Source: a virus (taxonomy: Duplodnaviria; Heunggongvirae; Uroviricota; Caudoviricetes). From it: a stretch of 17,398 bases of DNA. Each line of letters starts with the position of its first letter. Positions within the stretch are counted from its first letter, which is position 1. The stretch lies in the IMG/VR virus record IMGVR_UViG_2778261177_000007, positions 1 to 17,398 of that record; one strand, written 5' to 3'. The notes beneath the pieces are model-generated. The model saw only the letters and a list, made by a program, of their open reading frames with translations, was not told the origin of the DNA and ran no database searches. Positions 1 to 7,023 of the stretch are shown here, one piece after another. The position numbers and the translations under genes are program-made.

Positions 1-1143
1 CTATGCTGTTTTGATATCTACGATAATCCAGTCTTTACCACGATCATCATTGTATCGGTCGGTCATTTTTCTGGATTTATGACCTAACAACTTTTGCGTA
101 TCCAGACCCTGTTCCCGATATAACCGTTCTGACAGAGATCGCTGCTCATGAAATGTGGGCGCAGTTCCTTGCTCCCATTTTATGCCACATTTTTCCCTGG
201 CCTTTTTAAAAGCCGTTGTCAGAGTATTCGCAGAAACCTGGTCTCCTCTGTTTGCTTGAGAGGTTGTGTGACGGTAATGGACCAGATATTTACTAACAAC
301 AGCATCCCTGCACTGAGATATAACTTCACGAAGGGTAATATTCAGAGCATCGCATTTCAGGTTAAGCGGAATAGCAAGTTTTGAACCGGTTTTTTCCTGA
401 GTAATGTGCAACATGTCGTCCCAGATATCAGAGAATTTCAAATTGCAGATATCGCCTAAACGTTGTCCAGTGACAAGAGCAAGTAGCATCCCGCATTTTA
501 AATAGGGCTGCCGTCTGCTTACGCTGTCAAATATTGCCTGCCATTCGGGCAGTGATAATCTTTGGCGGTTTACTCGATTTCGCGGTTGTTTTGTTGCCTG
601 CGCTGGGTTAAATCCTGGCGGAACATGTCCTGCGTGTTGTGCTTCTTTGAAGACGTCGATTAACACCATTCTCACGACTTGCGCCATCCTGTTATGACCT
701 TCAGCCTTTACAGCATCAATTATTTCGGCAATATCAAGTGCGGTAATATCCTTGAGGTGTTGCATTCCACAATGCTCACGGAAAAGACGAATGGGTTTGC
801 CTTTTTGCCGATAGGAGTTGGGTCTTAGTTCATTATGTTGCAGCCTGTCCTCCTGGATAGAAATATATTTATCAAGCCATTCTGTCACCGTAATGTCTGA
901 GCGCCTGCCTTTCATTCTTTCCAGACGCTCATTGACGCTTAATATTTGTCGGGTACGTTGTTCAGCAATAATGGTATTTGCTTCAGTAGCAACTTGTTTT
1001 GCTTCATTCTCATCAGTTCCTAAGCTATGAAAACGACCGGATAGTGGATGTTTGTATTGCCAATATACCTTTCCTGTTCGCTTATCTAATTTGCAATATA
1101 AATTGGGTATAGAGATTTTGTGAGATCGGGGTCTAGCAGCCAT
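1..1143 (-). CDS. int: Lambda-family tyrosine integrase (site-specific recombinase)
   Basis: 380-aa ORF with ATG start; N-terminal arm-binding-like region, C-terminal HxxR...LLGHK...Y catalytic signature (HEQRSLSERLY, LGHKSRKMTDRY). Overlaps upstream xis by 11 nt as in lambdoid phages. Not lambda Int itself. Stop codon sits at the window edge. Confidence 0.9.
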   Translation of the reverse strand: MAARPRSHKISIPNLYCKLDKRTGKVYWQYKHPLSGRFHSLGTDENEAKQVATEANTIIAEQRTRQILSVNERLERMKGRRSDITVTEWLDKYISIQEDRLQHNELRPNSYRQKGKPIRLFREHCGMQHLKDITALDIAEIIDAVKAEGHNRMAQVVRMVLIDVFKEAQHAGHVPPGFNPAQATKQPRNRVNRQRLSLPEWQAIFDSVSRRQPYLKCGMLLALVTGQRLGDICNLKFSDIWDDMLHITQEKTGSKLAIPLNLKCDALNITLREVISQCRDAVVSKYLVHYRHTTSQANRGDQVSANTLTTAFKKAREKCGIKWEQGTAPTFHEQRSLSERLYREQGLDTQKLLGHKSRKMTDRYNDDRGKDWIIVDIKTA

Positions 1144-1369
1144 CAGCGATTATCCGTTGGAGTTTTGGGTTTGCGTTTATTGGGAGTTGCGGTTCTGCAA
1201 GCGTTCCTACAAAACGGGAATTTCGGTCAATCATCCAGTAGCGACCAACTTTTATAGCGGGTGGGGCCATCATTTTCCCTTGCGCGTATTTTTTCAGAAC
1301 TCGCTCACTTGGTGCTAAGTCCCCAAATTCTTCTTTAGCCCAGTCCTGTAAAGTGATTAGTCGAGACAT
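1133..1369 (-). CDS. xis: Excisionase (Xis-like)
   Basis: 78-aa ORF immediately upstream of and overlapping int; strong SD (GAGGAGG) 6-7 nt before ATG; size and position typical of excisionase. Confidence 0.7.
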   Translation of the reverse strand: MSRLITLQDWAKEEFGDLAPSERVLKKYAQGKMMAPPAIKVGRYWMIDRNSRFVGTLAEPQLPINANPKLQRIIADGC

Positions 1370-1508
1370 TTGTCCTCCTCTTAGCTGTTGAGGGAGTTTG
1401 TGACCGATATATCTGACATGATATTAAGCTCATGGCAGGTACATCTCTTGACTGGTCATAGAGATAAATTTAATGCTGAGAAATGCAGTATTGAATTTAT
1501 CAATTTTT

Positions 1509-1748
1509 CTATTTCCTACGTATGGCACGTAACTTCTTAATGTGTTCTGCCGTTTCGATCTCTTCTGCTATCCGATCTGCATCAGCTTTATTCACAGGTT
1601 CAAAGTCATGATTAAAGCGGAACATGCTGGCGATACATGTTCTGCCTTTTCGGATGTAGTGAACTTTGTTGTGGGTAGAACGCAGGATTTTGCAGGGAGT
1701 GCCGTGGTGGTCGACGTACCAGGTGTTAGGAAAAATGATTCTGAACAT
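1509..1748 (-). CDS. Small prophage early-left protein of unknown function (YdaC/DUF-like)
   Basis: 79-aa ORF co-oriented with the int-xis/early-left operon; resembles small conserved proteins found next to xis in enterobacterial lambdoid prophages (recall only). Confidence 0.5.
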   Translation of the reverse strand: MFRIIFPNTWYVDHHGTPCKILRSTHNKVHYIRKGRTCIASMFRFNHDFEPVNKADADRIAEEIETAEHIKKLRAIRRK

Positions 1749-1795
1749 TTTTACACCTCAGTTGGACGATGTTGAAATTTGCTGCTTTGAGGCCA

Positions 1796-2014
1796 TCACA
1801 GTCCCCATTGTTTGTTCTTAAGTTCGATCTCCTCCTGGCAACTTGCACAAGTCCGACAACCCTGAACGGCCAGGCGTCTTCGTTCATCTATCGGATCGCC
1901 ACACTCACAACAATGAGTGGCAGATATAGCCTGGTGGTTCAGGCGGCGCATTTTTATTGCTGTGTTGCGCTGTAATTCTTCAATTTCTGATGCTGAATCA
2001 ATGATGTCTGCCAT
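1796..2014 (-). CDS. TraR/DksA-family C4 zinc-finger protein
   Basis: 72-aa ORF with two CxxC pairs (CCECGD...CRTCASC) and a C-terminal layout typical of phage/plasmid TraR-like RNAP-binding zinc-finger proteins. Confidence 0.8.
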   Translation of the reverse strand: MADIIDSASEIEELQRNTAIKMRRLNHQAISATHCCECGDPIDERRRLAVQGCRTCASCQEEIELKNKQWGL

Positions 2015-2112
2015 CTTTCATTAATCCCTGAATTGTTGGTTAATACGCTTGAGGGTGAATGCGAATAATAAAAAAGGAGCCTGTAGCTCCATGATGATTT
2101 TGTTTTTCATGT

Positions 2113-2394
2113 TCACCGTTCCTTAAAGACGCCGTTTAACATGCCGATCGCCAGGCTTAAATGAGTCGGTGTGAATCCCATCAGCGTTACCGCTTCGCGG
2201 TGCTTCTTCAGTACGCTACGGCAAATGTCATCGACGTTTTTATCCGGAAACTGCTGTCTGGCTTTTTTGATTTCATAATTAGCCTGACGGGCAATACTGC
2301 GAAGGGCGTTTTCTTGCTGAGGTGTCATTGAACAAGTCCCATGTCGGCAAGCATAAGCACACAGAATATGAAGCCCGCTGCCAGAAAAATGCAT
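2113..2394 (-). CDS. Hypothetical early-left protein (true start may be the internal ATG at 2328, giving 71 aa)
   Basis: 93-aa ORF; the N-terminal 22 residues are Cys/His-rich and look non-native; the internal Met (MTPQQENALRSIARQ...) gives a more protein-like product. No strong SD at either start. Confidence 0.45.
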   Translation of the reverse strand: MHFSGSGLHILCAYACRHGTCSMTPQQENALRSIARQANYEIKKARQQFPDKNVDDICRSVLKKHREAVTLMGFTPTHLSLAIGMLNGVFKER

Positions 2395-2404
2395 TTAGTG
2401 GTTG

Positions 2405-2596
2405 TCATACCTGGTCTCTCTCATCTGCTTCTGCTTTCGCCACCATCATTTCCAGCTTTTGTGAAAGGGATGTGGCTAACGTATGAAATTCTTCGTCTGT
2501 TTCTACTGGTATTGGCACAAACCTGACTCCAATTTGAGCAAGGCTATGTGCCATCTCAATACTCGTTCTTAACTCAACAGGAGATGCTTTGTGCAT
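2405..2596 (-). CDS. Lambda orf63-like small protein
   Basis: 63-aa ORF, 192 bp, overlapping the downstream orf60a-like gene by 28 nt, which reproduces the lambda orf63/orf60a arrangement upstream of exo. Confidence 0.6.
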   Translation of the reverse strand: MHKASPVELRTSIEMAHSLAQIGVRFVPIPVETDEEFHTLATSLSQKLEMMVAKAEADERDQV

Positions 2597-2751
2597 ACCG
2601 CCTCCCGTTTATTATTTATCTTCTCAGCCAGCCGCTGTGCTTTCAGTGGATTTCTGATAACAGAAAGGCCGGGAAATACCCAGCCTCGCTTTGTAACGGA
2701 GTAGACGAAAGTGATCGCGCCTACCCGGATATTATCGTGAGGATGCGTCAT
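2569..2751 (-). CDS. Lambda orf60a-like small protein
   Basis: ORF in the position of lambda orf60a; starting at the third codon ([15 protein letters not shown]...) gives 60 aa and the 4-nt overlap with exo seen in lambda. The ORF track's longer version starts at 2757. Confidence 0.6.
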
Positions 2752-3428
2752 CGCCATTGCTCCCCAAATACAAAACCAATTTCAGCCAGTGCCTCGTCCA
2801 TTTTTTCGATGAACTCCGGCACCATCTCGTCAAAACTCGCCATGTACTTTTCATCCCGCTCAACCACGACATAATGCAGTCCTTCACGCTTCATACGCGG
2901 GTCATAGTTGGCAAAGTACCAGGCATCTTTTCGTGTCACCCACATGCTGTACTGCACCTGGGCCATGTAAGCCGACTTTATGGCCTCGAAACCACCGAGC
3001 CGGAACTTCATGAAATCCCGGGAGGTAAACGGGCATTTCAGCTCAAGGCCATTGCCGTCACTGCATAAACCATCCGGAGAGCAGGCGGTACGCATACTTT
3101 CGTCGCGATAGATGATCGGGGATTCAATAACATTCACGCCGGAAGTGAACTCAAACAGGGTTCTGGCGTCGTTCTCGTACTGTTTTCCCCAGGCCAGTGC
3201 TTTAGCGTTAACTTCCGGAGCCACACCGGTGCAAACCTCGGCAAGCAGGGTGTGGAAGTAGGACATTTTCATGTCAGGCCACTTCTTTCCGGAGCGGGGT
3301 TTTGCTATCACGTTGTGAACTTCTGAAGCGGTGATGACGCCGAGCCGTAATTTGTGCCACGCATCATCCCCCTGTTCGACAGCTCTCACATCGATCCCGG
3401 TACGCTGCAGGATAATGTCCGGTGTCAT
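2748..3428 (-). CDS. exo: Lambda exonuclease (Red-alpha)
   Basis: 226-aa product recognised by eye as near-identical to phage lambda Exo ([37 protein letters not shown]...); 4-nt overlap with bet as in lambda. Confidence 0.95.
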
Positions 3429-4210
3429 GCTGCCACCTTCTGCTCTGCGGCTTTCTGTTTCAGGAATCCAAGAGCTTTTACTGCTTCGGCCTGTGTCAGT
3501 TCTGACGATGCACGAATGTCGCGGCGAAATATCTGGGAACAGAGTGGCAATAAGTCGTCATCCCATGTTTTATCCAGGGCGATCAGCAGAGTGTTAATCT
3601 CCTGCATGGTTTCATCGTTAACCGGAGTGATGTCGCGTTCCGGCTGGCGTTCTGCAGTGTATGCAGTATTTTCGACAATGCGCTCGGCTTCATCCTTGTC
3701 ATAGATACCAGCAAATCCGAAGGCCAGACGGGAACACTGAATCATGGCTTTATGCCGTAACATTCGTTTGGGATGCGACTGCCACGGCCCCGTGATTTCT
3801 CTGCCTTCGCGAGTTTTGAATGGTTCGCGGCGGCATTCATCCATCCATTCGGTAACGCAGATCGGATGATTACGGTCCTTGCGGTAAATCCGGCATGTAC
3901 AGGATTCATTGTCCTGCTCAAAGTCCATGCCATCAAACTGCTGGTTTTCATTGATGATGCGGGACCAGCCATCAACGCCCACCACCGGAACGATGCCGTT
4001 CTGCTTATCAGGGAAGGCGTAAATTTCTTTCGTCCACGGATTAAGGCCGTACTGGTTGGCGACGATCAACAATGCGATGAACTGCGCATCGCTGGCATCA
4101 CCTTTAAATGCCGTCTGGCGAAGAGTGGTGATCAGTTCCTGTGGGTCGACAGAATCCATGCCGACACGTTCAGCCAGCTTCCCTGCCAGCGTTGCGAGTG
4201 CTGTACTCAT
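3425..4210 (-). CDS. bet: Lambda Bet (Red-beta) single-strand annealing protein
   Basis: 261-aa product recognised as near-identical to lambda Bet ([66 protein letters not shown]...). Confidence 0.95.
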
Positions 4211-4215
4211 CCGCT

Positions 4216-4512
4216 TTATACCTCTGAATCAATATCAACGTGGTGGTGAGCAATGGTTTCAACCATGTACCGGATGTGTTCTGCCATACGCTCCTGAAAC
4301 TCAACATCGTCATCAAATGCACGAGTAATGGCTTTTTTGCTGGCCCCGTGGCGTTGCAAATGATCGATGCAGAGTGATTCAAACAGGTGCTGTGGAAGAC
4401 CTTTTTCCATGTCGTCTGCCAGTTCTGCCTCTTTCTCTTCACGGGCGATCAGCTGGTAGTGACGTGCCCAGCTCTGAGCCTCAAGACGATCCTGAATGTA
4501 ATAAGCGTTCAT
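4216..4512 (-). CDS. gam: Gam, RecBCD inhibitor (short GamS form only)
   Basis: 98-aa product matching the C-terminal 98 residues of lambda Gam ([19 protein letters not shown]...VDIDSEV). The upstream long-form N-terminal coding sequence is present but out of frame and truncated. Confidence 0.9.
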
Positions 4513-4587
4513 GGCTGAACTCCTGAAAATGGCTGTGAAAATATCGCCCGCGAAATGCCAGGCTGATTAGGAAAACAGGAAAGGGGA

Positions 4588-4878
4588 TTAGTGATTCAGG
4601 CCGTTACCGCGTCCGTCGAGAAAAACTTCCACGAGCAAATCACGGGTATAAGTGCGCTCGATGCCGCGATGCAGATATAGCCGTCCGCGTAAATTAGCTG
4701 ATGCAGTCCAGGTACCATCTTTGTGTTTGACCAGCATTCCTGGCATGACCGCACCTCGATTAACGGTCTGCGTTCCGTAATGTTGATGAACCATAAAAAC
4801 TCCTGCCCGTAAGCTGGGCTGCTGAACATATAGAGACTTCTGCGCGTATTCAGGCGGTGGATGGCCGCCGGTTGTCAT
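4588..4878 (-). CDS. Hypothetical protein, first ORF downstream of the putative pL (in the N/kil/cIII position)
   Basis: 96-aa ORF with ATG start and a GAGG about 10 nt upstream. No recognisable family and no N-like arginine-rich motif. A competing 77-aa ORF (4596..4829) in another frame lacks an SD. Confidence 0.4.
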
Positions 4879-5049
4879 AACTAAGCCGCCTCGTTGAAGC
4901 GACTAAGGTATGAAATGTTGAGTTGATTTCAGCTGGTCACACCGACGTTCACGCGTCCGTTTCACCCCTCGCACTCCCCGAAGCCTGCTGAAATTCAAAC
5001 TGCGGATCTAAGCGGTCATCGCAACGGTGAATCAGGTAGTTGCCGTATC

Positions 5050-5130
5050 GTTGTGTTGTTGCGATGAACTTATTTAAAACTATAGTTGTTTTATCGTCAA
5101 CAACAAAAGTTGTTTTATTGGTTGTTTTAG
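5050..5130 (-). promoter_or_regulatory. Putative pL promoter with oL-like operator repeats
   Basis: On the minus strand: -35 TTGACG (rc of 5095..5100), 17-bp spacer, -10 TTAAAT (rc of 5072..5077). Embedded in GTTGTTTTA / CAACAAC repeats. A roughly 30-bp module (TTGTTGA..AAAACAAC.ATAGTTTTAA) is shared with the pR side. Confidence 0.45.
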
Positions 5131-5238
5131 ATATAACTGGTTGTATTTAGGATGGATTTATTTTGTGACTTGAATCGCATAGCGATAACTGAAGCGAGGT
5201 TATGGTGGTTTTTTTAACGGTGTGTGTGATGAGGGGAG

Positions 5239-5268
5239 GGCAAAAGAAAACCCGGCACGGTGACCGGG
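5239..5268 (-). terminator. Intrinsic terminator downstream of the repressor gene (tImm-like)
   Basis: Minus-strand RNA CCCGGUCACCGUGCCGGG forms a GC-rich stem and is followed by UUUUCUUUUG. Lies about 120 nt after the repressor stop, between the repressor and the pL/oL region. Confidence 0.65.
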
Positions 5269-5389
5269 ATTCTTACGCCGTTAGGTAAAGATATTATTGC
5301 GGTGGCTTAATATTACTACCTAGAGCAAAGATAGGAATTAGTTCTTTACTGAATGAGCACAATGCCCAGTTGATAATTTTTAATTGGTA

Positions 5390-6079
5390 CTACCCATGCT
5401 TCCTATATGTCTGCGGCATGCTCCCAATAACCTTACCGAAGATGAACACCCGGTTCATCTCGTCTTTCTCGATCGGGTCCCACGGTGAGTAGCTTTTGTT
5501 ATCAGAGATGACCAGCAGCTTATCCTTCATCATTTGCAGGCGCTTTACATGGGCTGTGTCGTCGTACAGAAACGCATAGATACCATCACCGTCGAAAGAT
5601 TTAACTGTGATATCAACGAACAGCAGATCACCTGGTTCGATCGTTCCTGACATGCTGTCACCACGCACGTTAATGATGCGGATATTTTCCGCCTTCCTAC
5701 CATCGAACATGTGACGAGCATCGTCAAACGAGTACTCAACCGAGCGTAGAACTTCTACAAACTCACGGTTGATGACTCCCGGCCCAGCACTGACTTCTAT
5801 ATCAAGAACGTCAATCTTGAAGTATTTGGAATGGCTGACAGTTGATTGTATTGGTTGCACTGTACTGTCTGACATATTTCCAACGCCAGAAGATAACCAT
5901 TCTGCGCGCACACCCAAAGCGTTCGCGATCTCCACGATTTTAGTTGTTTGATTAGCTTTCCCTGTTTCGATTTTCTGAATAGCAGCCTGGCTAACCCCGA
6001 CCAAATCCCCAAGCGCCTTTTGTGTAAGGCCTCGCGCTAATCTGGCTTCTTTAAGTCTTTCTGAGAGTGTTGTTTTCAT
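5390..6079 (-). CDS. cI-like phage repressor (N-terminal XRE-type HTH, C-terminal S24 LexA-like peptidase domain)
   Basis: HTH segment LTQKALGDLVGVSQAAIQKIETGK; Ala-Gly autocleavage-type site (VSAGPG); S24 motifs (VRGDSMSGTIEPGDLLFVD, ...HVKRL). Start set at the internal ATG 6079 (MKTTLSERL...); the 251-aa ORF-track version from 6145 would begin inside the operator palindrome. Confidence 0.85.
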   Translation of the reverse strand: MKTTLSERLKEARLARGLTQKALGDLVGVSQAAIQKIETGKANQTTKIVEIANALGVRAEWLSSGVGNMSDSTVQPIQSTVSHSKYFKIDVLDIEVSAGPGVINREFVEVLRSVEYSFDDARHMFDGRKAENIRIINVRGDSMSGTIEPGDLLFVDITVKSFDGDGIYAFLYDDTAHVKRLQMMKDKLLVISDNKSYSPWDPIEKDEMNRVFIFGKVIGSMPQTYRKHG

Positions 6080-6183
6080 AGTCCAAATGTACAACCAAGG
6101 TTTTATTTCATCAAACGAAAATGGTTGTTGATTAAAAACAACCATAGTTTTAATCTTGATTCAAATTAACCACGGAGGTTGTT
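6080..6183. promoter_or_regulatory. oR-like operator region with divergent pRM/pR promoters
   Basis: Perfect 8-bp-arm palindrome ATGGTTGT-N9-ACAACCAT at 6121..6145 and a second ACAACC..GGTTTT site at about 6093..6108. Putative pR: -35 TTGATT, -10 TTTAAT, then the GGAGG SD of the cro-like gene. Confidence 0.5.
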
Positions 6184-6414
6184 ATGAACCCAGCTATCAA
6201 AACAGCGATCAATATCGTTGGTTCACAAAAGAAACTGGGCGCTGCTTGCGAAGTTTCACAGCAGGCCGTCTATAAGTGGCTTCACAACAAAGCAAAGGTA
6301 TCCCCTGAACATGTCGGCAGCATTGTTACGGCTACTGGTGGAGTAGTGAAGGCATACCAGATTCGCCCGGATCTTCCGAAGTTGTTTCCACACACCGAAA
6401 AGAACGCAGCTTAA
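6184..6414 (+). CDS. Cro-like / YdaS-family HTH regulator
   Basis: 76-aa ORF divergent from the repressor, GGAGG SD 6 nt upstream of ATG, HTH-like segment (QKKLGAACEVSQQAVYKWLH); occupies the cro position. Confidence 0.8.
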   Translation: MNPAIKTAINIVGSQKKLGAACEVSQQAVYKWLHNKAKVSPEHVGSIVTATGGVVKAYQIRPDLPKLFPHTEKNAA

Positions 6415-6426
6415 ATTTCCATTTCA

Positions 6427-6439
6427 CGCTCTTTAACAA
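6427..6439 (+). promoter_or_regulatory. boxA-like antitermination element at the nutR position
   Basis: CGCTCTTTAACAA lies 13 nt after the cro-like stop; matches the rrn/lambdoid boxA consensus (TGCTCTTTAACAA) at 12 of 13 positions. No convincing boxB hairpin follows. Confidence 0.5.
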
Positions 6440-6483
6440 TAAGCAATCAACTTAACAGTCAATTCAAACTAAAGGAGTCAATT

Positions 6484-7023
6484 ATGCAACCACTTACATA
6501 CCAACAGACTAGCGGATTTAGCCCGACTGCGGTGATAAATCGTTCTCAAACAAAACAGGCGCCAGGCCACGAAAAAATCCGTGATGCCGTTCGCGCCTGG
6601 TCGGCTGCAGATAATCAGGATGTTGTTGCCGCACTCATTGTGAATGAGTATCGGGAGCAGGGCGGCGGCACCATCGATTTCCCTGATGATGTCAGCCGTG
6701 CACGCCAGAAGCTGTTCCGCTTCCTCGATAACAAATTCGATTCTGAAAAATACCGAAATAACGTGCGTGAACTGACCCCGGCAATTCTGGCGGTACTACC
6801 GCTGGAATATCGCGGCCACCTGGTTGAGCAGGATAGCTTCATGGCTCGGCTGGCTGAAATGGAAAAGGAACTCAGTGAGGCAAAACAGGCTGTCATTCTC
6901 AACGCACCACGCCACCAGAAACTGAAGGAGATGAGTGAAGGCATTGTGTCGATGTTTCGTGTGGACCCGGATCTGGCTGGTCCACTGATGGCGATGGTCA
7001 CCACCATGCTGGGGGCAATATGA
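6484..7023 (+). CDS. YdaT-family protein (cII-position regulator)
   Basis: 179-aa ORF with AAGGAG SD; motifs NEYREQGGG and LTPAILAVLPLEYRGHLV resemble Rac-prophage YdaT-family proteins (recall); sits in the cII position after cro. Confidence 0.65.
   Translation: MQPLTYQQTSGFSPTAVINRSQTKQAPGHEKIRDAVRAWSAADNQDVVAALIVNEYREQGGGTIDFPDDVSRARQKLFRFLDNKFDSEKYRNNVRELTPAILAVLPLEYRGHLVEQDSFMARLAEMEKELSEAKQAVILNAPRHQKLKEMSEGIVSMFRVDPDLAGPLMAMVTTMLGAI

Follow-up and report, generated by a model that had tools for sequence, protein, structure and literature searches.

A probable orthologue of lambda orf73, coding for a TraR/DksA-family zinc-finger protein, in the xis-exo interval of a lambdoid prophage

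Gene content of the xis-exo interval

The interval between the excisionase gene xis and the recombination gene exo was analysed here in a lambdoid prophage carried by a stretch of 17,398 nucleotides (IMG/VR virus record IMGVR_UViG_2778261177_000007, class Caudoviricetes), hereafter called the window. Six small open reading frames (ORFs) were listed in this interval, every one of them on the minus strand (Table 1). The original prediction, made from the sequence alone, had placed a cluster of small ORFs at 1509-2596, and this was borne out; the last ORF, orf60a, extends beyond 2596. One member of the cluster, an ORF of 72 amino acids (aa) at 1796-2014, encodes a protein of the TraR/DksA zinc-finger family and, as the best explanation of the evidence as a whole, is very probably the orthologue of bacteriophage lambda orf73. 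The analysis of this gene in the window covered its sequence, motifs, fold, orthology and synteny.

Family membership, conservation and predicted fold of the 72-aa protein

The 72-aa ORF matched Pfam model PF01258 (zf-dskA_traR) with 35.2 bits (gathering score 24.9, E 1.2e-8) and PHROG 54, described as 'DksA-like zinc-finger protein', with an E-value of 1.2e-25. Sequence searches against the PDB aligned TraR of the F plasmid (5w1s_M) over its full length (residues 1-69 versus 1-71, E 2.7e-5) and also recovered 6n57_M, the TraR chain of an RNA polymerase complex. The C4 zinc-finger, TraR-family assignment of the original prediction was therefore confirmed by significant Pfam, PHROG and PDB sequence matches.

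The protein displayed a DxxDxA motif (D3-I-I-D6-S-A8) and a zinc site of the form C35-x2-C38-x17-C56-x2-C59. It also carried two extra cysteines (C36 and C53), a residue E64, and the pair R46/R47, which aligned with the RR pair of TraR (R48/R49). Conservation of these residues was followed in 96 full-length sequences, lambda Orf73 and TraR included, out of 227 homologues gathered by a metagenome-scale search. Zinc cysteines C35, C38, C56 and C59 were kept in 96, 94, 92 and 89 of these close homologues, residues D3, D6 and A8 in 89, 94 and 94, the arginines R46 and R47 in 92 and 94, and E64 in 94. Some of the few exceptions were visibly frameshifted database entries. When 1.84 billion cluster representatives were scanned exhaustively with HMMER, 621 clusters were returned at E <= 0.001; the distant set considered here comprised 113 representatives of suitable length, mostly ~40-50 % identical to the window protein. 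Here C35, C38, C56 and C59 were found in 110, 110, 104 and 102 sequences and D3, D6 and A8 in 92, 106 and 105, with R46, R47 and E64 likewise conserved. The invariant alignment columns included D6, C35, C38, C56 and C59. All four zinc cysteines and the DxxDxA motif were retained among close and distant homologues alike.

AlphaFold2, run on 54 sequences, gave a model with a mean predicted local distance difference test (pLDDT) score of 82.5 and with helices 3-23, 44-49 and 57-70 arranged around a zinc ribbon. Its architecture (a single N-terminal helix, the ribbon and a C-terminal helix, without coiled coil) and its length of 72 aa fitted the TraR family, members of which measure about 70-75 aa. 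When compared with the PDB by Foldseek, the model was closest to RNA-polymerase-bound TraR (6n57_M and 5w1s_M, TM scores 0.57-0.59, probability 1.00), with YbiI and DksA next in rank. Structure prediction thus pointed to the family already named from the sequence, the top fold match being TraR in Escherichia coli RNA polymerase.

An ORF of only 72 codons, preceded by a weak Shine-Dalgarno sequence, might be a chance reading frame and no gene. Such a reading has next to no probability. It is contradicted by the significant profile matches, by the confidently predicted fold, by 227 homologues in which the motifs specifically stay conserved even at ~40 % identity, and by the lambda orthologue, which is translated and has been purified (PMC9239242); the conservation pattern has effectively ruled it out already.

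TraR of the F plasmid (PDB 5W1S, 6N57) shared with the window protein its length, the helix-C4 zinc ribbon-helix architecture, the DxxDxA motif, the equivalents of R48/R49 and a C-terminal acidic residue, and was its best structural match. The two were only 31-33 % identical, the window protein has two cysteines more, and F-plasmid TraR belongs to a conjugative tra operon instead of a phage early operon. On the equivalog model of F-plasmid TraR (NF010268) the window protein reached 27.8 bits against a cut-off of 108, while TraR itself scored 180.5; hence it is not TraR itself. DksA has in common with it the zinc-ribbon family PF01258, the RNA polymerase site and the acidic-tip logic (PMC9239242). 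The window protein is about half the size of DksA and has one N-terminal helix where DksA has its coiled coil; by analogy with TraR and Orf73, it would also be independent of ppGpp. No DksA model was found among its NCBIfam matches at E <= 0.01.

Orthology to lambda orf73

The window protein was identical to lambda Orf73 (Orf2310) at 65 of 71 aligned positions (92 %). The corresponding lambda ORF, located between ea22 and orf61 (lambda locus L001, 2693-2914, minus strand), carries no annotation in the RefSeq lambda record; its translation is MADIIDSASEIEELQRNTAIKMRRLNHQAISATHCCECGDPIDERRRLVVQGCRTCASCQEDLELISKQRGSK. Both genes are located between orf61 and the 31-codon ORF on one side and the xis-proximal variable genes on the other, and both proteins display the DxxDxA motif, all six cysteines and an ExxRL version of the ExxRK motif of TraR (PMC9239242, PMC8614690). 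Differences consisted of V49A (alanine in the window) and of the C-terminal tail, which reads EEIELKNKQWGL in the window and EDLELISKQRGSK in lambda; moreover, the downstream neighbour is a DUF4222 gene and not ea22.

At the DNA level, window positions 1819-4594 corresponded to 2719-5494 of the lambda locus in a single collinear block of 97.4 % identity (blastn). Therefore the TraR-like gene, the 31-codon ORF, orf61, orf63, orf60a, exo, bet and gam are all lambda genes. The differences from lambda Orf73 were mostly confined to its last ~11 residues because lambda homology breaks at 1819. Non-lambda DNA of the cluster was restricted to 1370-1818, which includes the DUF4222 gene, the spacer to xis and the last codons of orf73. 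The original prediction had described the cluster as only partly lambda-like (orf63/orf60a-like); this is correct for the DUF4222 part and understated for the remainder, TraR-like gene included.

Genes orf60a, orf63, orf61, orf73 and ea22 constitute a block that is conserved in lambda and Shiga toxin (Stx) phages (PMC8614690). The segment 1370-2760 (1391 bp) matched 183 phage records in total; in several of them, among which Lambda_4C10, 4A7, 1W and 3W, the match extended over the whole segment at 98.9 % identity. The segment also matched 3679 out of 5426 complete E. coli genomes, of which 1530 carried at least 80 % of the stretch. Annotations encountered in matching genomes were DUF4222 domain-containing, TraR/DksA family transcriptional regulator, DUF1382 family and DUF1317 domain-containing proteins. 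At the matching place of E. coli A3, the translation was identical to the 72-aa protein of the window (RefSeq WP_000763364.1, 'TraR/DksA family transcriptional regulator'). Related prophages adjoin icd. The TraR-like gene had been proposed as plausible cargo in a hotspot of accessory genes, a view that did not hold since orf73 belongs to the conserved lambda block. Strain-specific cargo was likewise rejected, given the position of the gene inside the lambda-homologous block and the incidence of the region among complete genomes.

Proposed function

Lambda Orf73 has been characterised experimentally. In purified form, the protein binds RNA polymerase at the DksA site, in competition with DksA; it inhibits rrnB P1 without ppGpp at a half-maximal inhibitory concentration of ~50 nM, the same as that of TraR, as well as rpsT P2, while dnaA promoters are inhibited only at 0.4-1.7 uM (PMC9239242). 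Most activity is lost in variants D3N and D6N, and the wild-type protein complements a dksA-null strain on minimal medium (PMC9239242). When expressed from pL, it lowers the synthesis of precursor ribosomal RNA (rRNA) to 29 % and slows host growth, and lysogens induced with mitomycin C yield 3-4 fold more phage with an intact orf73 than with D3A/D6A or deletion mutants (PMC9239242). Unlike TraR, lambda Orf73 has weak or no activating effect on the host promoters examined, and those lambda lytic promoters that were assayed were not activated either; the authors suggested that the two extra cysteines may explain this weak activation (PMC9239242). In cryo-electron microscopy structures of TraR, the N-terminal helix extends into the secondary channel and the active-site region, the globular domain contacts the rim helices and beta'Si3 through R48/R49, and the C-terminal helix contacts betaSi1 (as summarised in PMC9239242).

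Every contact element of TraR and Orf73 was present in the window protein, which also has the extra cysteines C36 and C53. As it displays all of these elements, the same mechanism as that of lambda Orf73 can be attributed to it by analogy with high confidence. After prophage induction or infection, orf73 would be transcribed within a leftward early operon with the order kil, gam, bet, exo, orf60a, orf63, orf61, 31-codon ORF, orf73, DUF4222, xis and int. The N-terminal helix (D3-x-x-D6-x-A8) would enter the secondary channel of RNA polymerase and point to the active site, the globular zinc-ribbon domain would rest on the beta' rim helices and beta'Si3 via R46/R47, and the C-terminal helix would touch betaSi1. 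Promoters with short-lived open complexes, for example those for rRNA and ribosomal proteins, would be inhibited. Host growth would be slowed, resources drawn away from ribosome synthesis and phage yield increased. A modulator of host transcription acting through the secondary channel, as originally proposed for this gene, is thus supported by analogy with lambda Orf73, a protein of 92 % identity for which this role was demonstrated (PMC9239242).

A TraR-fold zinc ribbon might nevertheless act chiefly on something other than rRNA promoters, either in the manner of YbiI or in a block of host replication initiation ('bin'). YbiI (2kgo) was indeed the best PDB sequence match by E-value (9.7e-6), but this match involved the zinc ribbon only (residues 29-67) whereas TraR aligned throughout, DxxDxA helix included; on the YbiI equivalog model, the window protein scored 43 against a cut-off of 96. 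Earlier work tied orf73, together with ea22, ea8.5 and orf55, to the block of host replication initiation (PMC9239242), yet the concentrations given above place rrnB P1 in vitro well before the dnaA promoters. The weak or absent activation by lambda Orf73, possibly due to its extra cysteines, both of which occur in the window protein, would also suit another target. All in all, such a target seems most improbable.

Counter-evidence and expression

A number of points were set against this reading, both at the level of the protein and at that of its expression. The window protein scored 54.4 bits on NCBIfam model TIGR02419 (C4_traR_proteo), below the cut-off of 59.7. Lambda Orf73, the activity of which is experimentally proven, scored 54.7 on the same model; the cut-off is thus conservative for the Orf73 clade, or non-discriminating, and the low score was rejected as counter-evidence to TraR membership. 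The window protein is also a variant, differing from lambda Orf73 by V49A and in the tail helix (the one that contacts betaSi1 in TraR), so that its activity would be carried over by analogy. Within this tail, W70 is a minority residue found in 8 of 96 homologues, the consensus being arginine; W70 excepted, EEIELKNKQWGL is nearer to the family consensus EEIELxNKQRG than the lambda tail. The variant C-terminus and A49 would presumably leave activity unchanged. Finally, the role of orf73 in lambda is disputed: the Wegrzyn laboratory described pro-lysogenic effects and a reduced yield, as opposed to the increased yield in PMC9239242.

As for expression, a terminator-like, GC-rich hairpin is located directly upstream of orf73 (RNA fold z-score -3.4). 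Its 23-nucleotide sequence was letter-identical in lambda (record positions 30667-30689) and in phage 4A7; the hairpin thus belongs to the regular layout and is no lesion. It may be the lambda terminator tL3, for which the literature found gave no coordinates. No N-like ORF of at least 30 aa was present between the cI-like repressor gene (5390-6145) and kil (window 4880-5390); phage 4A7, which has the same leftward arm, likewise has no annotated N. A promoter scan of 4850-5420 detected no minus-strand consensus promoter, which left the leftward early promoter unplaced. A put-like antitermination RNA was sought by folding ~200 nucleotides upstream of kil, with an unremarkable z-score of only -1.4, and no Rfam family was matched within the cluster or close to it (whole window at gathering thresholds; 1300-5450 at E <= 1). 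Homology to the related icd prophages ended at 14824, after which non-phage DNA and an IS3-family transposase were encountered. The prophage in the window may be defective, and incomplete, interrupted or rearranged at this point.

These features could indicate an intact but idle orf73: in a defective prophage, or without antitermination, the leftward transcript would stop at or before the hairpin just 5' of the gene and little protein would be made. The absence of an N-like ORF and the loss of similarity to intact relatives after 14824 would fit such a remnant, as would the matching prophage of E. coli A3, with its pseudogenised integrase and frameshifted ydaT-like gene. On the other hand, all six small ORFs as well as int, xis, exo, bet and gam were intact in the window according to the ORF listing, and the protein sequence of orf73 was identical across strains. 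The leftward arm of 4A7 is the same, also without annotated N, and lambda shares the hairpin, yet high expression of its orf73 upon induction was seen by ribosome profiling (cited in PMC9239242). An idle remnant was therefore regarded as unlikely. Expression of orf73 from the leftward early operon of this prophage is the reading suggested by synteny. The caveats on expression lower confidence in the production of the protein in this host and have no bearing on its identity.

Neighbouring ORFs

Table 1. Position and strand of the features discussed, in window coordinates.
Feature	Position	Strand	Evidence and remarks
Lambdoid integrase gene (int)	1-1143	-	ORF listing and profile matches; left end of the window
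Excisionase gene (xis)	1133-1369	-	ORF listing and profile matches
DUF4222 gene, 79 aa	1509-1748	-	Pfam PF13973, 69.8 bits (cut-off 27); PHROG 285 (unknown function)
Probable orf73 orthologue, TraR-family C4 zinc finger, 72 aa	1796-2014	-	PF01258, PHROG 54, alignment with lambda
Mosaic junction	1819		Inside the 3' end of orf73; start of lambda DNA homology (blastn, protein alignment)
31-codon ORF, counterpart of lambda orf2313	2021-2116	-	28 of 31 residues identical with the lambda ORF in the same position
Terminator-like GC-rich hairpin	2076-2090	-	Terminator scan; GGAGCTACAGGCTCC plus T6; lies within the 31-codon ORF, shortly upstream of orf73
orf61, 93 aa (71 aa from internal ATG at 2328)	2113-2394	-	PHROG 303 (unknown function), E 3.7e-42
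orf63 orthologue (DUF1382), 63 aa	2405-2596	-	Pfam PF07131, 106 bits; 59/63 identical to lambda Orf63
orf60a orthologue (DUF1317), 62 aa	2569-2757	-	Pfam PF07026, 130 bits; 58/62 identical to lambda
exo, lambda-type recombination gene	2748-3428		ORF listing and profile matches
bet, lambda-type recombination gene	3425-4210		ORF listing and profile matches
gam, lambda-type recombination gene	4216-4512		ORF listing and profile matches
kil-like gene	4588-4878		Profile match
cI-like repressor gene, 251 aa	5390-6145	-	Helix-turn-helix and peptidase S24
YdaS-like Cro-type gene	6184-6414		
YdaT-like gene	6484-7023		
Inverse autotransporter gene, 1302 aa	8987-12895	+	Intimin/invasin type; IAT_beta and Big_1 / Invasin_D3 repeats
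Alpha/beta hydrolase gene	12932-13975	-	BD-FAE
isrC, Hfq-binding small RNA gene	15890-16012	-	Rfam, 135 bits (gathering score 39)
IS3-family transposase	16332-16631 and 16628-17398		

The 31-codon ORF started with GTG and overlapped the stop codon of orf61; in lambda, the 31-aa peptide gene orf2313 was detected by ribosome profiling (PMC8614690). The 93-aa ORF corresponded to full-length Orf61 as it is found in Stx phages. Public annotations start at the internal ATG and thus delimit the gene as 2113-2328. Lambda orf61 (61 aa) and an unannotated 60-codon frame after it (L001, 3013-3325) were represented by this one gene in the window. DNA alignment displayed a run of A6 in the window versus A7 in lambda; on account of this single extra A, orf61 of reference lambda is frameshifted. 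This is in line with the literature, where lambda Orf61 is noted to be truncated in comparison with its Stx-phage counterparts, for which a homeodomain-like fold has been modelled (PMC8614690). A solved structure is available for Orf63, its sole matching PDB entry being 8dsb. The molecule name of this entry is 'Xis (Excision72)' though its sequence is that of DUF1382/Orf63, which looks like a naming oddity in the record.

The DUF4222 gene was the only non-lambda gene of the cluster and occupies the place of ea22 in lambda and Stx phages. It is preceded by a strong Shine-Dalgarno sequence (GAGGTG, 5 nucleotides upstream of the ATG), and its product had 154 homologues in Escherichia, Salmonella, Citrobacter and Enterobacter. 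AlphaFold2 modelled this protein as a small beta-barrel followed by a C-terminal helix of 25 residues (pLDDT 89.2). Foldseek searches of the PDB and of viral models returned only weak matches, at E >= 3e-4 throughout, namely uncharacterised phage proteins and generic barrels of SH3-like, PWWP and KOW type; a PDB sequence search gave no match.

The only characterised DUF4222 protein found, and the closest characterised relative of the 79-aa protein, was RgdR (ECs1581) of enterohaemorrhagic E. coli O157:H7, a 99-aa prophage regulator with a positive effect on expression of LEE1 and type III secretion and a repressing one on motility (PMC3378721, PMC10877973). Both are small, basic, prophage-borne proteins matching Pfam DUF4222. 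They were 30 % identical over 47 residues only and differ in length (79 versus 99 aa); RgdR has an RGD tripeptide (PMC3378721) that is missing from the window protein, and its gene lies beside a primase gene on a P4-like element, as opposed to a lambdoid exo-xis region. This comparison was too distant, and a transfer of function from RgdR was rejected.

Four prophage loci of Enterobacter and Citrobacter (L006-L009) displayed Orf73 homologues 65-76 % identical; next in order came a gene of the NinX family and one for a 79-aa DUF4222 protein, immediately ahead of xis and int. The neighbourhood of TraR-like and DUF4222 genes therefore recurs across genera. The recurrence of orf73, NinX and DUF4222 genes may reflect common descent of a module or a functional link. 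That the DUF4222 protein is a second small host regulator, distantly related to RgdR and working together with the TraR-like protein in a two-gene module of host reprogramming, is very unlikely; in that case the gene order would not be a matter of shared ancestry.

Other regions of the window

The immunity region (5390-7023) was not lambda-like. It was composed of the cI-like repressor gene and the YdaS- and YdaT-like genes, after which O and P of lambda type were found. Directly after replication gene P, at the place of lambda ren and nin, the inverse autotransporter gene and the convergent hydrolase gene were found; the pair looks like a surface-adhesin moron and recurs in further prophages, among them the one at icd in E. 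coli A3. Past the end of prophage homology, the isrC gene was followed by the IS3-family transposase.

Biological significance

Publications already cover the orf73 family and the present orthologue group, as well as the mechanism and the influence on phage yield, and RefSeq naming is already correct. The gene in the window is thus a correctly called example of a known gene, of small value as a discovery. Of some further interest are possible differences in potency or promoter activation between natural C-terminal variants, the part played by DUF4222, and the passage of transcription through the hairpin in phages where no N gene is visible.

The wider meaning lies in incidence. About two-thirds of complete E. 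coli genomes have lambdoid prophages with a TraR-like modulator of RNA polymerase; a shutdown of ribosome synthesis that is independent of ppGpp is thus a likely consequence of prophage induction in most strains.

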